64,000 nt of DNA from Terriglobia bacterium. Lineage in GTDB: Bacteria > Acidobacteriota > Terriglobia > JAJPHL01 > JAPKYU01. The translations under genes were made by a program, and so were the position numbers. Below the pieces are notes generated by a model. It searched no databases, had not been told where the DNA came from, and was given only the letters and a program-made list of their open reading frames with translations. Where the stretch lies: assembly GCA_965223005.1 (NCBI GenBank), contig CBDCVK010000008.1, positions 32,001 to 96,000 of the forward strand. Reading direction: 5' to 3'. Of this stretch, positions 45,767 to 53,810 are shown one piece after another. Within the stretch, counting starts at the first letter, position 1. Every line of letters begins with the position of its first letter.

Positions 45767-45920
45767 CGCCACCTGCGAGAGCGGAGCAATGGCCGTCCTC
45801 TGGCGCCCTGAAGAAGTGCTAGACAGGTTGCTTTCCGGGATGCAAAATCCAAAGATGCTAGATACATCCCGAATGAGTCCTATTCGCAGTTGCAGGACTT
45901 GACGCTTGAGGAGGATGTCG

Positions 45921-48900
45921 ATGACCCTGAAAGCCCTGAGCACCTCTCTGATCATCGCACTTATGCTGGCCGTGACGGCGCGAGCAGAGGTGAGCTTCAA
46001 TCGCGACGTCCGCCCAATCATGTCGGATACCTGCTTCCGTTGTCACGGTCCTGACGAGAATGCCCGAATGGCGGGTCTGCGGCTTGACATCCGGAAAGAA
46101 GCTCTGGGGCCTACCAAGTCCGGCCACATTCCTATTGTTCCCGGCAAGCCGGAAGCGAGCGAGATTGTCAAACGCATCTTTTCGGATGACCCCAGGGTCA
46201 TGATGCCACCGGCTTTCGCCGACAAGGAACTGACCGAGAGCCAGAAGGAAACCCTTCGGCAGTGGGTAGCCGAGGGCGCCAAATACGAGGGGCATTGGAG
46301 CTTCCAGCCCGTCCAGCGGCCGGCAGTGCCGGCGGTTGCGGGAAGAGGAGCCGCCATTCGCAATCCGATCGATGCGTTCATTCAGAATCGTCTGGCGAAG
46401 GAGGGATTGCAGCCGTCTCCCGAGGCGGATCGGCGGACGCTGATTCGGCGGGTCGCGCTAGACCTCACAGGTCTGCCGCCCACGCCTGCAGAGGTGGAAG
46501 CGTTCCTCAAAAACACTTCGCCCGGTGCCTACGAAAAGCTGGTTGAGGGACTGCTGGCTTCTCCGCGCTTTGCAGAAAAGCAGGCGATGCACTGGCTCGA
46601 CGCGGTACGCTATGCGGACACGCGCGGGTTCCATGGAGACAACGACCAGCCGGCGTGGCCCTATCGGGACTACGTGTTGCGGGCGTTTCTCGACAACAAG
46701 CCGTTCGACGAATTCACGCGGGAGCAGATTGCCGGGGATCTCTTGCCGGATGCCACCGTGCAGCAGCGAGTTGCCTCGGCATATAACCGCATCCTTCGCA
46801 CCTCACGGGAGGGCGGCCTCCAGGAAAAGGAGTACCTGGCCAAGTATGCCTCCGACCGCGTGCGGACAACGTCCAGCGTCTGGCTCGGTCTGACAATGGG
46901 CTGCGCGGAGTGCCACGACCACAAATTCGATCCGGTGAAGACGAAGGACTTCTATTCGATGAAGGCCTTCTTCGCCGACATCAAAGAGAAAGGCCTTCTA
47001 CCCGGTTCTGGCCCGGAAGCCTGGATTGCAACCCTGTCGTTGCCAACCCCAAAGCAGCGCACGCGATTAGCGGAACTGAATGAAGCGGTCGAGGCGGCCG
47101 AGCAAGCGCTCGAGGAGAAGACGGCGAGCCTAGCATCACAGCAGGCAGGATGGGAACGGCAACTGTTAGCTGACTTTGAAGCAGGCCGGCTAGAGTGGCT
47201 CTATCAGCGACCCTTCTCGGCTAGCTCCAGCAATGGCGCGCACCTCACCATCTACGAAGACGAGCTCGTCGAACGCACCTTCCATGTCGACGCGAAGGCG
47301 ACACTGGTAACACAACGAGAGCCCGGAAATGGTCTGGTCGTGGTCAGCGGACCGAATCCGGACAACGAGACTTACACGATCAGCTTGAAGCCAGAGCCCG
47401 GAACATGGACGGCCCTCGGGGTGCAGGCAATCCAGGATGAAAGTCTGCCTGGCAAGCGGCTGGGGCGAGGCGCGGATCGCTTAATGCTGACCGAGGTCGA
47501 GGCTGTGTTGTCGGCCAATGGGAAGACGCCAGAGCAGAACCTCTCGTTCGTTCTGGCGACCACCCGCGGATCTAGAGGACCCCTGGAGCAGCCGCCAATG
47601 GCCGCCATTGACGGCGACCCGGCCAGCGGTTGGGCTGGCGATCGGGGAAGTCCAGTCGACGAGGGTCGGAGCCCGTTTCTCGCGCTCCGTTTCGCTGAGC
47701 CTGTCAAGACGGACGCAACCTCGGTGATCACGGTCCGTCTCCGGCACGATTCCTCGCTTCGCCGTGCGACGATCGGCCGGCTGCGCTTTGCGCTCTCCTC
47801 CGGCCGGTACTCCTGGCCGCTGGATGATTCAGATACCGCAGCCGCAGACGATGACCTGGAAGTTGGCGAGCAGCGCTCCAGTAAAGGTGGCGCGGGTGAT
47901 GGTATGCCCAGCGAGGTGCTGGAGGCCCTCAAAGTCGCCCGGGAAGCCAGGTGCGAAAACCATCTCGAGGCCCTCAAGGAGCATTTCCAATGGTCTTCTA
48001 CCGGGCTGCAGCCGCTTTTTGTCCAGTTGGAACGTTTGAAAGCTGCCCGGGCTTTGCTGGAAACTGAGATTCCCACGGTGATGGTTACCGAAGCGACCAA
48101 ACCACGGAAAACCCGCGTTCTCCCACGGGCGAACTGGATGGATGAGTCGGGCGAGATTGTACAACCCGCGATTCCCGGGTTCCTCGGTCAAATGGAAACC
48201 AACGGCCGAGCGAATCGTCTGGATCTGGCAAACTGGATTGGCTCCCGTAAGAACCCACTGACTGCACGGGCGTTCCAAAATCGCCTATGGCGACAGTTCT
48301 TCGGCACGGGGCTGTCCAAGGTGCTCGACGATCTGGGCTCGCAGGGCGAGTGGCCAACACACCTCGAGCTGCTCGACTGGCTTGCCGCCGAGTTCATGGA
48401 GCCGAGCTGGAGGGCAGAGGGCACACACCCCTGGGATGTGAAACACATTATCCGGACGATTGTTACGAGCCACACCTATCGTCAGTCCTCCATGAGCAGC
48501 CCGCAATTCGACGAGCGCGACCCAGGCAACAGGTTCCTGGCGCGCCAGAGCCGGTTCCGCGTAGATGCGGAAGTCGTCCGCGACGTCGCGCTGGCTGTTT
48601 CCGGTTTGTTGGTCGAAAAGTTCGGCGGCCCGAGCGTCCGGCCGTATCAACCGGAAGGCTACCTGGCGGCGATGAATTTTCCCATGCGCGCATACTCGGA
48701 AAGCCGAGGCGAAAACATGTACCGTCGAGGCGTCTATACTCATTGGCAGCGGACGTTCTTGCATCCCAGCTTGTTGACCTTTGATGCGCCTTCGCGTGAG
48801 GAGTGCACGGTGAACCGGATGAGTTCCAACACGCCGTTGCAGGCACTGATCCTCCTGAATGATCCGGTCTTCGTCGAAGCCGCGCGGGTGTTTGCGCAGA

Positions 48901-49178
48901 ACACCCTGAAGAAAGGAGGTCCCACGCTCGATGCGCGCATCGACTGGGCTTTCCTGCAGGCCCTCAGCCGGAAGCCGACCCCTGACGAGCGAAAAATCCT
49001 CGCCGACCTGCACCAGAAGAGCCTTGCGGAGTTTGCTGCGCAGCCGCAGAAGGCGCGAGAATTTGTTCGTGTGGGGGAATCGCCGCTGGCGACGGATGTA
49101 AGACCAACCGACCTGGCGGCGATGACAACCGTGGCGCGGGCGATCCTGAACCTCCATGAGACCATTACGAGGAACTAG
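45921..49178 (+). CDS. PSD1/planctomycete cytochrome c protein (DUF1549+DUF1553) with central insertion
   Basis: CFRCHGPD, NPIDAF, CAECHDHKFD, NPLTAR, PTHLELLD; RBS gaggagg. Confidence 0.9.
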   Translation: MTLKALSTSLIIALMLAVTARAEVSFNRDVRPIMSDTCFRCHGPDENARMAGLRLDIRKEALGPTKSGHIPIVPGKPEASEIVKRIFSDDPRVMMPPAFADKELTESQKETLRQWVAEGAKYEGHWSFQPVQRPAVPAVAGRGAAIRNPIDAFIQNRLAKEGLQPSPEADRRTLIRRVALDLTGLPPTPAEVEAFLKNTSPGAYEKLVEGLLASPRFAEKQAMHWLDAVRYADTRGFHGDNDQPAWPYRDYVLRAFLDNKPFDEFTREQIAGDLLPDATVQQRVASAYNRILRTSREGGLQEKEYLAKYASDRVRTTSSVWLGLTMGCAECHDHKFDPVKTKDFYSMKAFFADIKEKGLLPGSGPEAWIATLSLPTPKQRTRLAELNEAVEAAEQALEEKTASLASQQAGWERQLLADFEAGRLEWLYQRPFSASSSNGAHLTIYEDELVERTFHVDAKATLVTQREPGNGLVVVSGPNPDNETYTISLKPEPGTWTALGVQAIQDESLPGKRLGRGADRLMLTEVEAVLSANGKTPEQNLSFVLATTRGSRGPLEQPPMAAIDGDPASGWAGDRGSPVDEGRSPFLALRFAEPVKTDATSVITVRLRHDSSLRRATIGRLRFALSSGRYSWPLDDSDTAAADDDLEVGEQRSSKGGAGDGMPSEVLEALKVAREARCENHLEALKEHFQWSSTGLQPLFVQLERLKAARALLETEIPTVMVTEATKPRKTRVLPRANWMDESGEIVQPAIPGFLGQMETNGRANRLDLANWIGSRKNPLTARAFQNRLWRQFFGTGLSKVLDDLGSQGEWPTHLELLDWLAAEFMEPSWRAEGTHPWDVKHIIRTIVTSHTYRQSSMSSPQFDERDPGNRFLARQSRFRVDAEVVRDVALAVSGLLVEKFGGPSVRPYQPEGYLAAMNFPMRAYSESRGENMYRRGVYTHWQRTFLHPSLLTFDAPSREECTVNRMSSNTPLQALILLNDPVFVEAARVFAQNTLKKGGPTLDARIDWAFLQALSRKPTPDERKILADLHQKSLAEFAAQPQKAREFVRVGESPLATDVRPTDLAAMTTVARAILNLHETITRN

Positions 49179-49188
49179 GGAGACTCCG

Positions 49189-50625
49189 ATGGACCCAGAA
49201 TCATTGGCGTTGCAGATTCACCGGCGGACGTTCCTGCGCTACGGCATTTCAGGACTGGGCCTGGTGGCGTTGAATTCATTACTCGATGCGAGGCTGTTGG
49301 CTTCGGAAACGGCCCTGGGAACCCAGGGGTCGCAAGGAGTTGTGGACCCGCTACATCATCCGGCGAAAGCCAAGCGCGTTATCTTTCTTTATCAGGCGGG
49401 CGGACCATCGCACCTCGAGACCTTCGATTACAAGCCAAAGCTCGCCGAAATGAACAGCAAACCAATGCCCGAGTCCTTCACCAAGGGTCAACAGCTGGCC
49501 CAGCTGCAAGGCCAGCCGCTGGTTTGCTTTGGACCGCAGCACGAGTTCAACAGGTTCGGCAAATCGGGACTCGAGATCTGCGGGTTGTTTCCACACATCG
49601 GCAGCGTCGCAGATGATGTTTGCATTATTCGCTCGATGTGGACGGAACAGATTAACCACGATCCGGCCCATACCTTGATGAACACTGGAGCGATCGTCGC
49701 GGGCCGGCCGAGCATGGGATCATGGTTGTTGTATGGGCTCGGGTCGGAAGCCAACGATTTGCCGGGTTTCGTGGTACTGGCCTCAAAGGGTAAGGGTGGG
49801 CAGATGCAGCCGATTGCGGCACGGCAATGGGCCTCCGGATTCCTGCCCGGCAAATTCCAGGGTGTAAAGTTCAACTCCATCGGGGACCCCGTACTATACA
49901 TCCAGAACCCGCAGGGCTTGAATGCCAGCATCCAGCACGCTTCGGTGCAGGCGATTCAGGCCATCAACAAGATCCAACACGAAGCGCGGCGGGATCCGGA
50001 GGTTCTTACGCGGATTTCGCAGTATGAGATGGCATTCAAGATGCAGACTAGCGTGCCCGACCTCATGGACATGAGCAAGGAGCCACCCCATATCCTGGAC
50101 ATGTATGGCGCCAAGCCAGGGGATGGCTCTTTTGCGTCCAATTGCATGCTGGCGCGGCGCCTGGCGGAGCGCGGCGTGAGGTTTATCCAGCTCTATCACC
50201 GGGACTGGGACCACCATGGCGCGGTTAAAGACAACGTTGCCATCAAGGCGCAGGAAACGGACCAGGCTACTGCCGCGCTGATCAAGGATTTGAAGCAGCG
50301 AGGCATGTTTGAGGATACGTTGGTCGTTTGGGGAGGCGAGTTTGGTCGGACACCCATGTCCCAGGGTGACAACGGACGCGACCATCACATCAAGGGCTTC
50401 TCGTTCATGCTGGCGGGTGGTGGGATTAAGGGCGGCATCACGTACGGAGCCACGGACGAGCTGGGCTATGCGGCGGTGGAAAAACCCGTGAGCGTCCACG
50501 ACTTCCACGCCACCATGCTGCACCTACTGGGGATCGATCACCTGCGCATGACGGTCAAGTTCCAGGGCTTGGACGCACGGCTGACGGGGGTTTCTGGTGA
50601 GGTCCTGAAGGAAATTCTGGCTTAG
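49189..50625 (+). CDS. DUF1501 family protein (Tat-exported)
   Basis: HRRTFL, GGPSHLETFD.KP, WDHH, GEFGRTP, GRDH. Confidence 0.9.
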   Translation: MDPESLALQIHRRTFLRYGISGLGLVALNSLLDARLLASETALGTQGSQGVVDPLHHPAKAKRVIFLYQAGGPSHLETFDYKPKLAEMNSKPMPESFTKGQQLAQLQGQPLVCFGPQHEFNRFGKSGLEICGLFPHIGSVADDVCIIRSMWTEQINHDPAHTLMNTGAIVAGRPSMGSWLLYGLGSEANDLPGFVVLASKGKGGQMQPIAARQWASGFLPGKFQGVKFNSIGDPVLYIQNPQGLNASIQHASVQAIQAINKIQHEARRDPEVLTRISQYEMAFKMQTSVPDLMDMSKEPPHILDMYGAKPGDGSFASNCMLARRLAERGVRFIQLYHRDWDHHGAVKDNVAIKAQETDQATAALIKDLKQRGMFEDTLVVWGGEFGRTPMSQGDNGRDHHIKGFSFMLAGGGIKGGITYGATDELGYAAVEKPVSVHDFHATMLHLLGIDHLRMTVKFQGLDARLTGVSGEVLKEILA

Positions 50626-50699
50626 TCGGGCCAGCCATATACCTCAATCTCAAAGGGCAGAGCCAATACTGCTTTGCAATTCCATTGGACAGAAGGTCC

Positions 50700-50729
50700 T
50701 TGACAGCGGTAGAAGCCCTAAGGGAAAAT
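50700..50729 (+). promoter_or_regulatory. Sigma70-like promoter of the leader/sulfite reductase unit
   Basis: TTGACA (50700-50705), 18 nt, GAAAAT (50724-50729); predicted start site falls at about the leader ATG 50736. Confidence 0.6.
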
Positions 50730-50735
50730 CACTTC

Positions 50736-50834
50736 ATGGTGCAGTTCGGCCGGAGAGAGTTAAGGCTTTGTTGCCCGACGCCGGGATGTTGTTGCCCGTG
50801 CGGGCGGCTCTCCGGCGGACGGTTCGTGTCGTAG
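50736..50834 (+). CDS. Cys-rich leader peptide (32 aa), candidate attenuator peptide
   Basis: MVQFGRRELRLCCPTPGCCCPCGRLSGGRFVS*; Cys codons at 50769, 50772, 50787, 50790, 50793 and 50799. Confidence 0.8.
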   Translation: MVQFGRRELRLCCPTPGCCCPCGRLSGGRFVS

Positions 50835-50862
50835 CTTGTAGCCTAAGTTATCATCCAGACTG

Positions 50863-50905
50863 ACCCGCCGTCGAGAGATCGGGCCTCTCGGGCGGGTTTT
50901 TCGTT
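50863..50905 (+). terminator. Intrinsic terminator (attenuator 3:4 hairpin) upstream of the sulfite reductase
   Basis: acccgcc-gt-cgagag / ctctcg-ggcgggt followed by ttttcgtt; lies in the 5' leader, not after a gene. Confidence 0.8.
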
Positions 50906-50947
50906 CCGCGCGATCGAGCTGAGCGGAAGCAGACGGGGTACGGAATC

Positions 50948-53209
50948 ATGAAAGTCTCTAACGCACGTTGGAAAGAACGGCTTGCCGGGAAGATGCCGGA
51001 TAGCTTGGCCCGCGAAGTGGACATCTTCGAAACGGAGATAGATTTGCGAAGACAGGGCAAAGTGGAAGAAAAACTCTTTGCGGAAACTCGGCTTCGCAGA
51101 GGTGTCTACGGACAACGCTATGACAACGGCCACCGGCACGATGGGCAGAAAGTCCAGGATCTCGCCTATCCTTCCAGACAACTGACCAAGGGCCCGAATA
51201 CGGTGTGGGATGCTCCCGGAATGCAGCGCATCAAGGTCCCTTATGGAGGACTTAATGCAGAGCAACTAGAGACTCTGGCGGATTTGGCCGAGGAATATTC
51301 CGATGGCATTGCGCATGTCACGACCCGGCAGGACTTCCAACTCCACTATGTCCAGATTGACGATACGCCCGCTTTGATGCGGCGGCTGGCCGCGGTCAAG
51401 ATCACCACCCGCGAGGCTTGTGGCAACTCGGTGCGCAATGTGACCGCTTGCCCCTACGCCGGCGTTTGCCCGGACGAGGCGTTCGACGTCACCCCGTATG
51501 CCCGCGCCCTTTCCCGATTCTTGCTGGGACATCCCGACGCGCAGAACTTCGGCAGGAAGTTCAAGCCGGCCTTCAGCGGCTGCCGGGACCAAGGCTGTGG
51601 CCTTACCAACATGCACGATCTGGGGTTGATCGCAGTCAAACGGAACGGTGGCGGAAAAGAAGAACGCGGATTTGAAATGTACGTCGGCGGTGGATTGGGG
51701 GCCGTTCCCTATCAGGCGAAGCTGTTTGACTCCTTCCTGCGGCCGGAGGAGCTTCTGCCGACAGCTCAGGCAATTGCCAGGGTCTTCGCGCGACAGGGGG
51801 AGAAGAAAAACCGCAATCGGGCCCGTATCAAATTCCTGGTCCATGACCTGGGGATTGAGAAATTCAAGGAGCTGGTGCTCGAGGAGCGCAAGAATCTGCC
51901 TCCGGATGCCCGATGGAACGATTCCCTGGAGGGCGCTGAGCAGGAGTCGGAAGGAGCTCTCCGACCCGGAGGGAAACTGCCGGCCGGAGGCTCGGAAGAC
52001 TTCCGGCGCTGGGTGGAAACCAATACTCGCCGGCAGAAGCAGGAGGGATATGTCGTGGCCACGGTGGCGCTTCCCCTGGGAGATCTCACCTCGCTACAAC
52101 TCCGTGCTTTGGCCGACATCGTCCGCCGGTTCACAAAAGAAACCATCCGCACGACTGTGGAACAGAATTTCGTTCTCCGCTGGATCAGTCAAAGCGATTT
52201 GCCCGGACTCTATCGAGCATTAAAGGAGGCCGGCCTGGCAGAGCCGGGCGCGGGCACCCTCGTGGACATTGTCGCCTGCCCCGGCACCGATACCTGCAAA
52301 CTCGGGATTTCCTCCTCGCGCGGGCTGGCCGCCGAGTTGCGGAAACGACTGGCCGAGAAATGCTTTCAACTGGATGAGGCCGTTCAAAGCCTACACATCA
52401 AAGTCAGCGGCTGCTTTAACAGCTGCGGGCAGCACCACGTCGCCGACCTGGGCTTTTACGGCGTCAGCCGCAAGCTGGCGGGCCATGCCGTACCGCACTT
52501 TCAGGTCGTTCTCGGCGGTGAGTGGACCCACAATGCCGGCTCCTATGGCCTGGCCATTGTAGCGATCCCCTCCAGAAGAATTCCGGAAGTGGTCACCCGC
52601 ATTACCGAACGCTATGTCTCCGGCCGAAAGAACGGAGAAGGCTTTCAGGAGTTCATTAAGCGAATCGGCAAGGCGGAATTAAAGAAAATGCTGGAAGATC
52701 TTGCCCAGCCACTCGACCCGGCGACCGATCGCTCCTTTTTCCAGGACTGGGGTGACCCCCGGGAGTACAGCCTGGGCGACCTCGGCATCGGCGAATGCGC
52801 CGGGGAGGTGGTGAGCTCTATCGAGTTCGGCCTGGCGGCCGCAGAACGCGAAGTCTTCGAGGCGCAGGTGGCGCTGGAAAGTGGCGAAACGGAGAAGGCC
52901 AGAGAGACGGCGTATCAATCCATGCTCCATGCTGCCAAAGCACTCGTCCGAATCGAGTACCTGGATGTTTCCGACGACTCGGATAAGATTGTCCAGCAAT
53001 TCCGCACCCGCTTCTACGACACGCAGAAGTTCTTCGATCCTTTTGCCGGCGGTAAGTTCGCCCACTACCTGTTTGCCGCTCACCGAAAGGCCGAGGATCC
53101 ATACACGCCGGAGGCCACCCACCACTTGATCGAGGAGGCGCAACTGTTCATCGAGGCTTCGCACAGTTGCTACAGCCGCATGGCCACCCCGGCTGGCGCC
53201 AGGGCGTAG
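50948..53209 (+). CDS. Siroheme nitrite/sulfite reductase (probably assimilatory sulfite reductase) with C-terminal HEPN-like extension
   Basis: GVYGQR, HVTTRQDFQ, ACGNSVRN, CPGTDTC...SGCFNSCGQH ligands; the Cys leader favours sulfite. Confidence 0.88.
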   Translation: MKVSNARWKERLAGKMPDSLAREVDIFETEIDLRRQGKVEEKLFAETRLRRGVYGQRYDNGHRHDGQKVQDLAYPSRQLTKGPNTVWDAPGMQRIKVPYGGLNAEQLETLADLAEEYSDGIAHVTTRQDFQLHYVQIDDTPALMRRLAAVKITTREACGNSVRNVTACPYAGVCPDEAFDVTPYARALSRFLLGHPDAQNFGRKFKPAFSGCRDQGCGLTNMHDLGLIAVKRNGGGKEERGFEMYVGGGLGAVPYQAKLFDSFLRPEELLPTAQAIARVFARQGEKKNRNRARIKFLVHDLGIEKFKELVLEERKNLPPDARWNDSLEGAEQESEGALRPGGKLPAGGSEDFRRWVETNTRRQKQEGYVVATVALPLGDLTSLQLRALADIVRRFTKETIRTTVEQNFVLRWISQSDLPGLYRALKEAGLAEPGAGTLVDIVACPGTDTCKLGISSSRGLAAELRKRLAEKCFQLDEAVQSLHIKVSGCFNSCGQHHVADLGFYGVSRKLAGHAVPHFQVVLGGEWTHNAGSYGLAIVAIPSRRIPEVVTRITERYVSGRKNGEGFQEFIKRIGKAELKKMLEDLAQPLDPATDRSFFQDWGDPREYSLGDLGIGECAGEVVSSIEFGLAAAEREVFEAQVALESGETEKARETAYQSMLHAAKALVRIEYLDVSDDSDKIVQQFRTRFYDTQKFFDPFAGGKFAHYLFAAHRKAEDPYTPEATHHLIEEAQLFIEASHSCYSRMATPAGARA

Positions 53210-53234: not shown

Positions 53235-53810
53235 ATGGAACTCCAGCACGTCAACGTAAAGCTCTACGTGGAGAATCCAAAGGGAACTGACCTAGAGGTG
53301 TTGATTCCAGTCTTTCACAACTGGATCCAGGATCAGGTGTGTGAGGAATTGTTGATCGATGTGGCCGATTACCGGCACGTTCATCGGGGTCCGGGAGTGG
53401 TCCTGATCGGCCATGAAGCCAATTACAGTCTGGACAATGCAGATAACCGGCTGGGCGTTCGCTACAATCGCAAGGCTCCCATAGCCGGCAGCAATCAAGA
53501 CCGCTTCGTGCAAGCCACCCGGGCGGCGCTGACCGCCTACAGACGTCTAGATTCCGATCCGCGGATTCAGGGAAAATTTCTTCTGAACGGTCAGGAGCTG
53601 GAGCTATTTGTGAACGACCGACTGCTGGCTCCGAACCTTGAGAAAACCTACCAGGCTGCGAAGCCGGAACTGGAAGGCTTTTTCGGGAAACTCTTTGCGG
53701 GAAGCGGTTACTCGGTGGCGCACAATGGCCACCCTCGGAATCTGTTCTCGGTCGAAGTCCAGGCTTCCAGGCCCTTCACAGCAAGCGAATTGCTCAAGAA
53801 CCTATCCTGA
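53235..53810 (+). CDS. Hypothetical protein likely co-transcribed with the reductase
   Basis: 25 bp downstream; motif-like VFHNWIQ..LIDVADY.HV..GPGVVLIGH, NDRLLAPN. Confidence 0.75.
   Translation: MELQHVNVKLYVENPKGTDLEVLIPVFHNWIQDQVCEELLIDVADYRHVHRGPGVVLIGHEANYSLDNADNRLGVRYNRKAPIAGSNQDRFVQATRAALTAYRRLDSDPRIQGKFLLNGQELELFVNDRLLAPNLEKTYQAAKPELEGFFGKLFAGSGYSVAHNGHPRNLFSVEVQASRPFTASELLKNLS

Follow-up and report, generated by a model that had tools for sequence, protein, structure and literature searches.

A candidate cysteine-sensing leader-peptide attenuator upstream of a sulfite reductase gene in Terriglobia

Transcription attenuation by a leader open reading frame (ORF), alternative RNA pairings and a terminator is classical, and is exemplified by the enterobacterial trpL, hisL, leuL, thrL, pheL and ilvL leaders. 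Here we analyze a leader at positions 50700–50947 on the + strand of a 64,000-nucleotide (nt) stretch of a Terriglobia genome (the whole stretch is hereafter called the window), placed directly before a gene for a NirA-type sulfite reductase. Like the enterobacterial leaders, it has a short ORF (sORF) rich in codons for the end product, and, as in the trpL type, alternative pairings 1:2, 2:3 and 3:4 with an intrinsic terminator before the first biosynthetic gene, so that the position of the ribosome would decide which hairpin forms. Unlike trpL-type attenuators, it would sense cysteine, is found in a Terriglobia host, has its sORF at or near the predicted 5′ end without a Shine-Dalgarno (SD) sequence, and represents one module shared by several unlinked sulfur operons, with no sequence relationship to those leaders.

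Leaders that switch between terminator and antiterminator are also found before cysteine and methionine genes of Firmicutes, where T-box and S-box (S-adenosylmethionine, SAM) RNAs sense uncharged tRNA or SAM directly, with no leader peptide. The leader described here is alike in having such a switch in a sulfur amino-acid leader, and differs in having a leader peptide and in matching no known RNA family: in a search of 50500–51100 at E ≤ 10, no Rfam 15 family reaches its gathering score, the best being Actinomyces-1 (19.1 versus 39.1 bits, E = 1.4).

For cysteine, Canestrari et al. (2020; bioRxiv 10.1101/834739) described mycobacterial poly-Cys sORFs that, according to the available part of that preprint, act by translational attenuation through SD sequestration, with no transcription termination in a reporter; the same part states that attenuation mediated by an upstream ORF had been previously undescribed for cysteine. 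Papers of 2026 on Cys leader peptides of M. tuberculosis cite this work. As far as these texts go, the mycobacterial and the present sORFs share runs of Cys codons, an unannotated frame before cysteine or sulfur genes (probably leaderless there and plausibly so here), several loci per genome, and stalling as the signal, in our case a proposed one; homology between the two is not expected. The mycobacterial Cys tract, in the same account, pairs with the SD of the next gene and the output is translational, whereas the present leader has a conserved hairpin, a T tract and an antiterminator. In none of our folds is the reductase SD paired with the Cys tract; only the 3′ end of the sORF pairs, weakly, with the SD region. 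The mycobacterial precedent, which an earlier annotation of this DNA made from its letters alone (the sequence-only reading) had invoked, holds for the Cys runs, the sulfur genes and the multiple loci, and fails for the output, which is predicted to be terminator-based here and, in the available text, is translational there.

Seliverstov et al. (2005; PMC1262725), in the part of the article available to us, proposed candidate Cys leader peptides before the cys and cbs operons of Mycobacterium, Propionibacterium and Bifidobacterium, noted no terminator hairpins there and suggested Rho. Those leaders and ours have in common Cys-codon runs near a stop codon before cysteine genes and a prediction by comparative genomics; unlike them, judged by that part of the article, the present leader has a clear intrinsic terminator and an antiterminator. 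In Acidobacteria, almost no predicted attenuator has an assigned function according to the accessible text of Naville and Gautheret (2010), and the accessible texts of that study and of Korolev et al. (2016) mention Acidobacteria and no Cys attenuator. A terminator-based Cys attenuator was not found in full-text literature searches (subscription-only papers and supplements being outside their scope), in agreement with the earlier annotation, whose author knew of none with an intrinsic terminator in Acidobacteriota. The logic is textbook; its terminator-based form for cysteine is undescribed in the searched literature.

Leader elements and their conservation at reductase loci

The leader contains the following elements, all on the + strand:

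50700–50729, +: sigma-70-like promoter, with −35 TTGACA at 50700–50705, an 18-nt spacer and −10 GAAAAT at 50724–50729
50736–50834, +: leader sORF, 32 codons followed by TAG at 50832–50834, peptide MVQFGRRELRLCCPTPGCCCPCGRLSGGRFVS
50749–50757, +: segment 1, gccggagag, the partner of segment 2; the 1:2 pairing encloses the Cys codons
50769–50801, +: regulatory Cys codons, TGT TGC at 50769–50774, TGT TGT TGC at 50787–50795 and TGC at 50799–50801
50808–50818, +: segment 2, ctctccggc(gg), the antiterminator 5′ arm, at the same position as the family arm CCGACGTGTGG
50865–50877, +: segment 3, ccgccgtcgagag, the antiterminator 3′ arm and terminator 5′ arm (the terminator arm begins at 50864)
50885–50897, +: segment 4, ctctcgggcgggt, the terminator 3′ arm
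50897–50901, +: T5 tract, directly after the terminator hairpin

The promoter matches the consensus at 10 of 12 positions and is the sole promoter-like site found by a scan of 50300–51300 (0.4 expected), and the ATG at 50736 stands 6 nt past the end of its −10 hexamer. Cys occupies sORF codons 12, 13, 18, 19, 20 and 22, that is, six Cys within 11 codons, compared with 9.4 per 1000 codons in the long ORFs of this genome. Pairings 2:3 and 3:4 are mutually exclusive because both use 50865–50877. These elements had been noted in the sequence-only reading: its TTGACA-18-GAAAAT promoter upstream of the sORF can be read base for base, its 32-codon frame with CC, CCC and C is returned by translation of 50736–50834, and each coordinate of its three pairings is correct, with the U-tract following as stated.

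The duplex energies of 1:2, 2:3 and 3:4 are −22.6, −20.3 and −25.2 kcal/mol, respectively. The terminator hairpin (50864–50896) has an energy of −19.8 kcal/mol and is also detected by a terminator scan, and the 2:3 duplex is stronger than 99 of 100 dinucleotide shuffles (z = −2.69). The minimum free energy (MFE) structure of the free leader holds 1:2 together with the terminator (3:4).

Loci of orthologous reductases were taken from 41 related genomes (L001–L030) and from a species-level genome collection (L031–L105), the latter loci coming nearly all from Terriglobia/Acidobacteriota metagenome-assembled genomes. Left out before counting were L011 (a match from residue 112, at a contig end), L024–L030 (32–41% identical, aligned only from about residue 92 and not taken as orthologues), eight loci with the gene start at or past the contig end (L077, L083, L085, L086, L088, L094, L097 and L098) and L078 (104 nt of upstream DNA only), which leaves 88 loci with at least 200 nt upstream, the window itself included. 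A locus was counted as carrying the module if the 400 nt upstream contained an sORF with four or more Cys in 11 codons (or three or more in a row) and if a hairpin of −12 kcal/mol or lower plus a T tract lay no more than 150 nt beyond it.

The module of a poly-Cys sORF and an intrinsic terminator is present in 70 of the 88 loci (Terriglobia), whereas a Cys sORF alone appears on the antisense strand in 5/88 and in shuffled sequences in a mean of 1.6/88. The conserved Cys sORFs that had been proposed as a check on this locus are thus found in orthologous leaders. A hairpin with a T5–T8 tract follows in 70/70 of the sORF-bearing loci. Three loci without the module (L006–L008) show an apparent 'CEFCKK' frame, which is in fact a promoter-like TTGCAA-17-TATAGA. 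Two loci of the same order as the window (L009 and L010) carry a variant: a strong hairpin, GATCCTCCGGG..CCCGGAGGATC, shares part of its 5′ arm with the TGA stop of the Cys sORF and has a weak CCCTTT tract after it. Judging by this layout, the ribosome itself would block the hairpin, without the help of a separate antiterminator. A scan of the window's own genome (G000) under similar criteria returned 322 Cys-rich short frames, 26 of them terminator-like, in 6.5 Mb of strand, and the window element is clearly the best.

The 70 loci yield 69 distinct leaders, the window's among them (L003 equals L031 in sequence), and these align as one family over 185 columns (alignment A1), with the window leader aligned throughout. 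The A1 consensus reads ..GGCGnCTGCATnTGTTGTTGY...GCGCCGnnGTGTGGGGGA...ACCCACCGnCGGA...CCGnCGGTGGGTTTTTTGT. Within it, three aligned Cys codons (TGY-TGT-TGY) are nearly invariant at positions 1 and 2 and show T/C variation at the third position in 12 and 21 of 69 rows, as expected if the run codes for Cys. The number of Cys codons ranges from 3 to 10 among copies while the flanking sequence changes. A typical family peptide ends in ..C-I-C-C-C-(C)-N-S-A-P-x-C-G-G-I-A-R, in which the A-P-x-C-G-G codons are the antiterminator arm CCGnnGTGTGG, complementary to the terminator CCCACCGnCGG.

The terminator stem is 81.8% paired across the family, compared with at most 48.5% when slid out of register, and none of 500 shuffles attains its covariation. 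In its majority register the antiterminator is 76.3% paired, compared with at most 54.5% when slid. Compensatory changes are seen at columns 138–167 (AU in 64 leaders, GC in 4) and 70–138 (UA in 62, CG in 3); in the window's genus the terminator 5′ arm CCCACC has become CCCGCC, and both partners of the A-to-G change have changed too. A 1:2-type stem (GGCGC/GCGCC around the Cys run) occurs in a subset of leaders only, and we therefore do not claim 1:2 for the family.

The leader Cys codons favour TGT, which makes up 69% (259/375) of those in the 69 leader sORFs and 22.7% of those in the long ORFs of this genome; the leaders span many genomes and the background usage comes from this one, which makes the comparison a lead only. 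TGT accounts for three of the six Cys codons in the window sORF and is the middle codon of the run in 68/69 leaders. This preference may reflect selection for a wobble-read codon or a constraint at the RNA level.

Ribosome position and the choice of hairpin

In the 69 leaders, the median distance from the Cys run to the start of the antiterminator arm is 11 nt, and that from the end of the arm to the stop codon is 8 nt. To follow the consequences of ribosome position, we assumed a footprint made up of the A site and the 14 nt after it, and folded the RNA 3′ of this footprint. When Cys12, 13, 18, 19 or 20 of the window sORF occupies the A site, 2:3 forms in the nascent RNA while segment 4 has yet to be made (−29 to −41 kcal/mol with extension); when Cys22 does, half of the 2:3 helix forms. 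From codon 23–25 to the stop, the terminator is the MFE structure. Once the ribosome has reached the stop codon, no more than the last 2 nt of segment 2 are under it, and 1:2 re-forms behind it.

In the family as a whole, upstream pairing holds at least half of the terminator 5′ arm, at a stage when the 3′ arm has not yet emerged, in 68/69 leaders with the ribosome on the first Cys codon, in 66/69 with it on the last, and in 9/69 with it on the stop codon. Constrained folding, which had also been suggested as a check, thus flips from antiterminator to terminator as the ribosome moves past the Cys codons. In the sequence-only reading the ribosome ran over segment 2 to the stop; the passage over segment 2 is retained, and the decisive point comes earlier than the stop, at codon ~23–25.

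Taken together, these features make it likely that the leader works as a classical leader-peptide attenuator of transcription, ribosome-mediated and cysteine-sensing, placed before the sulfite reductase. In the mechanism that we propose from its elements, transcription would start at or a few bases from the ATG at 50736, and a ribosome would translate the 32-codon leader. Scarcity of Cys-tRNA(Cys) would make the ribosome stall on any of the six Cys codons (50769–50801), all of which lie upstream of segment 2. Segment 2 would then be left free to pair with segment 3 as soon as the latter is made, no terminator hairpin would form, and RNA polymerase would read into the genes for the sulfite reductase and for a 191-amino-acid (aa) protein. 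When cysteine is ample, the ribosome would proceed past codon ~23 and cover or displace segment 2, which segment 1 would recapture behind the ribosome; segments 3 and 4 would then form their hairpin, and transcription would stop at the T tract near 50900. Untranslated RNA would adopt 1:2 plus 3:4 and would also terminate.

A promoter scoring at least 9 of 12 stands just upstream of the sORF in 59/69 family leaders, and the first in-frame start codon follows the −10 element by 6–7 nt in 15 of these 59 and by 10–14 nt in 38. The window, with 6 nt, is of the leaderless type, and it is plausible that its sORF is leaderless or nearly so. Among contigs from four metatranscriptome runs, some cover parts of the locus: three in X12 lie inside the reductase gene and are identical to the window; one in X17 (record 9), from a related strain, is 3696 nt long with 79 differences and runs from the upstream gene through the leader into the reductase; and one in X18 (record 21) starts at 50981. 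As contigs, they carry no transcript starts, ends, strand or level, and hence neither support nor contradict the attenuator model.

When the full leader is folded at equilibrium, the end of the sORF (its last codons and the region of its stop, 50823–50843) pairs with the SD-like GGGG and start codon of the reductase (50933–50950). The reductase SD has a probability of being unpaired of 0.13 in free RNA, which rises to 0.46 when a ribosome sits on the sORF stop. This pairing is G-U-rich and could provide a translational layer of control.

Further copies before sulfur genes and alternative explanations

A covariance model (R1) built from A1 scores the window element at 47.8 bits and has a second full-length match in the same genome, at G000:C2:172467-172582 on the minus strand (26.1 bits, E = 1e-4; locus L143). 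This second copy has the sORF VIDLASSFLSSCCSPPMCRGG, the terminator GCCCGCCCGG...GGGCGGGC and a T-rich tail, shows the same fold switch as the window, and lies upstream of genes for a TauE/SafE-family permease and the phosphoadenylyl-sulfate reductase CysH. The genome-wide scan described above had missed it because a CC+C leader falls below its thresholds (a run of at least 3, or at least 4 Cys). Some 2 kb further along, on the strand of this copy, is a gene for a LysR-type regulator.

R1 matches occur in 58/151 sampled genomes of the class at E ≤ 1e-3 (55/148 without three genomes flagged as unpublished), many of which have 2–4, and their distribution across families is patchy, for example 12/14, 13/19 and 0/20. 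In a phylum-wide sample, 13/151 genomes match at E ≤ 1e-4, 7 of them outside the class. We fetched 20 further matches, of which 15 are full modules, 2 have a poly-Cys frame and terminator but no start codon within the fetched DNA, and 3 are terminator-only. Ten proteins downstream of R1 matches were scanned for families, giving TauE (2), 1-Cys peroxiredoxin (2), GTP_EFTU, CysN-like (1), TP_methylase, siroheme-type (1), a 323-aa PAPS_reduct protein, CysD-like (1), rhodanese (1), an outer-membrane barrel (1) and no family (1). One of the downstream TauE genes is followed by a protein whose N-terminus resembles, by eye, the CysH of this genome.

The copies before cysH and before CysD-like, CysN-like, siroheme, rhodanese and peroxiredoxin genes point to a cysteine regulon, and the range of sulfur-assimilation functions among the downstream genes argues most strongly for cysteine as the signal. 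These sequence comparisons support a regulon that is small in this genome and wide in the class. On balance, we also favour the view that Terriglobia possess a class-wide cysteine 'ribulon', in which homologous, leaderless or near-leaderless poly-Cys sORF attenuators act by intrinsic termination before at least seven kinds of sulfur operons (sulfite reductase, TauE-cysH, cysD, cysN-like, siroheme synthesis, rhodanese and 1-Cys peroxiredoxin), two of them in this genome. It would be the first terminator-based Cys attenuator and among the first regulatory systems defined in Acidobacteriota, maybe tuned by the TGT bias. The 1-Cys peroxiredoxin is an unexpected member of a cysteine regulon; Cys modules stand directly upstream of such genes at L145 and L152 (Pfam AhpC-TSA and 1-cysPrx_C) and, by eye, at L147.

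Several observations weigh against a ribosome-mediated attenuator. The whole-leader MFE of the window is unremarkable (z = −1.25, with 21/200 shuffles folding equally well), so the case rests on comparison and not on single-sequence thermodynamics. Even when the ribosome sits on a Cys codon, the terminator stays the equilibrium MFE structure in 60–61 of 69 leaders; since the terminator wins at equilibrium, antitermination must be kinetic, like that of the classical attenuators. Shuffled G+C-rich upstream RNA meets the half-arm threshold 63% of the time, compared with the 66/69 observed; at a threshold of 0.75 of the arm, the figures are 21% and 39/69. Covariation of the antiterminator (A1, majority register) is 0.102 versus 0.099 in the control and is reached by 197/500 shuffles, so that of the covarying stems proposed as a check 3:4 is upheld and 2:3, in this register, is not above shuffles. 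The window's genus uses a shifted antiterminator register, and a single consensus therefore cannot fit all leaders. Only 35 of the 69 antiterminator duplexes beat 95% of dinucleotide shuffles, and cognate arms give −15.3 versus −14.0 kcal/mol for arms swapped among leaders; for the window arms the values are −19.7 (cognate) and −13.0 kcal/mol (swapped mean). The module is lacking at 18 of the 88 orthologous loci, including L004, of the same genus and with a reductase 79% identical. Finally, the same-genus L002 has ACG in place of the ATG, and the next codon, GTG, would have to serve; together with the 10–14 nt spacing in 38/59 leaders, this means that the leaderless sORF put forward in the sequence-only reading agrees with the 6 nt between −10 and ATG in the window and is not a conserved property. 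The trp/his-type 1:2, 2:3, 3:4 reading as such is supported by conservation with the reductase, the synonymous Cys variation, the fold switch and the other sulfur operons.

If stalling mainly opened or closed the reductase ribosome-binding site, with the hairpin and T tract playing a minor part, the leader would resemble its mycobacterial counterparts, which according to the available text act translationally, and the rise in SD accessibility from 0.13 to 0.46 with a ribosome on the sORF stop would fit. We regard this as improbable. The hairpin and T5–T8 tract are kept in 70/70 sORF-bearing loci with a covarying stem, and in many relatives the terminator lies 130–170 nt before the gene. In mycobacteria, as that text describes, the Cys tract pairs with the SD and there is no terminator, whereas SD–Cys tract pairing is absent from all folds here; moreover, the SD pairing found instead is G-U-rich and its comparison is limited to near-identical genomes. 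Translational control could nevertheless be a second layer beside attenuation. A little less probable again is control of the terminator by the RNA itself, as a riboswitch or as a binding site for a protein or tRNA, with translation playing no part and the Cys codons incidental. Cys and Met genes of Firmicutes are under T-box or S-box RNA control, and the UGUUGUUG run is highly conserved as RNA sequence. The run, however, always lies in an open frame with a start and a stop (70/88 versus 5/88 antisense), its T/C variation is synonymous, its Cys count varies from 3 to 10 while the surroundings change, a strong promoter stands 6–14 nt before the start codon, and the best Rfam score is the 19.1 bits noted above against a gathering score of 39.1.

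The sORF might instead encode a functional small Cys-rich peptide (metal-binding, redox or a precursor), with the hairpin merely ending the transcript. Canestrari et al., in the available part of their preprint, raise this possibility for some mycobacterial sORFs, and the family peptide keeps non-Cys residues (N-S-A-P-x-C-G-G-I-A-R). The A-P-x-C-G-G codons, however, coincide with the antiterminator arm, so that this constraint is explained at the RNA level; the window peptide departs from the family consensus outside Cys, and the copies lie immediately before sulfur-assimilation genes and in the same orientation. We consider a functional peptide very unlikely. Chance is scarcely credible as an explanation, whether as a Cys-rich frame in G+C-rich DNA beside an ordinary terminator or as the terminator of the upstream DUF1501 gene. 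Frames with at least 4 Cys in 11 codons number 1150 in this 61.5% G+C genome, where out-of-frame Cys-rich stretches are common, and the fold z-score is unremarkable; yet the module accompanies the reductase in 70/88 loci and is absent from the controls, the upstream gene differs outside the genus, and a second copy stands before cysH.

The reductase operon and the significance of the leader

The leader is flanked by the following genes:

45906–50625, +: upstream pair, a PSCyt1/PSCyt2/PSD1 protein (1090 aa) and a DUF1501 protein (489 aa)
50948–53209, +: NirA/Sir-type siroheme-[4Fe-4S] reductase, 753 aa, the regulated gene
53235–53810, +: conserved 191-aa protein, second gene of the operon, 25 nt after the reductase

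The reductase contains two NIR_SIR and NIR_SIR_ferr half-domains, and its best family match is NirA. Its closest solved relative is 1zj8 (E = 1.1e-50), deposited as Mycobacterium tuberculosis NirA, an enzyme reported to be a sulfite reductase. The reductase is the only NIR_SIR protein in the genome, which also encodes a Sat-type ATP sulfurylase and CysH, and it is therefore the only candidate assimilatory sulfite reductase. A search of this genome for the CysD family gave no match, the Sat-type ATP sulfurylase being used instead. Residues 1–91 and ~600–753 of the reductase are extensions beyond the solved NirA/Sir enzymes; they match no significant Pfam family, the best being HEPN (E = 0.003), below the cut-off.

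The 191-aa gene directly follows the reductase in more than 90 fetched loci, and the residues W30, D42, A44, D45, Y46, H48, G52, P53, G74, R129, P133 and N134 of its product are invariant. The protein matches no Pfam or NCBIfam family, and the ESM Atlas gives only unnamed acidobacterial clusters. Its structure model (mean predicted local distance difference test score, pLDDT, 94.2) shows a duplicated alpha/beta sandwich with no close solved relative, the best matches being weak and AdoMetDC-like (template modelling score 0.36–0.43, E ≥ 4.5e-4). The protein may be a partner or maturation factor of the 753-aa type of reductase. Upstream, the pairing of PSCyt1/PSCyt2/PSD1 and DUF1501 genes is typical of Planctomycetes-type genomes. 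These genes adjoin the reductase only in the window's own genus, which indicates that the leader belongs to the reductase and not to the upstream gene.

Among amino acids under classical attenuation cysteine is a notable gap, and the only Cys-codon sORFs known to have been tested, those of mycobacteria, work at the level of translation. A compact cysteine-responsive expression switch is one possible use of such a leader. For Acidobacteriota, an abundant soil phylum, a conserved and alignable Cys attenuator offers a directly testable regulator. It assigns the NirA-type gene to sulfite reduction and flags unannotated partners in sulfur assimilation, namely the 191-aa protein, the TauE permease and the 1-Cys peroxiredoxin.

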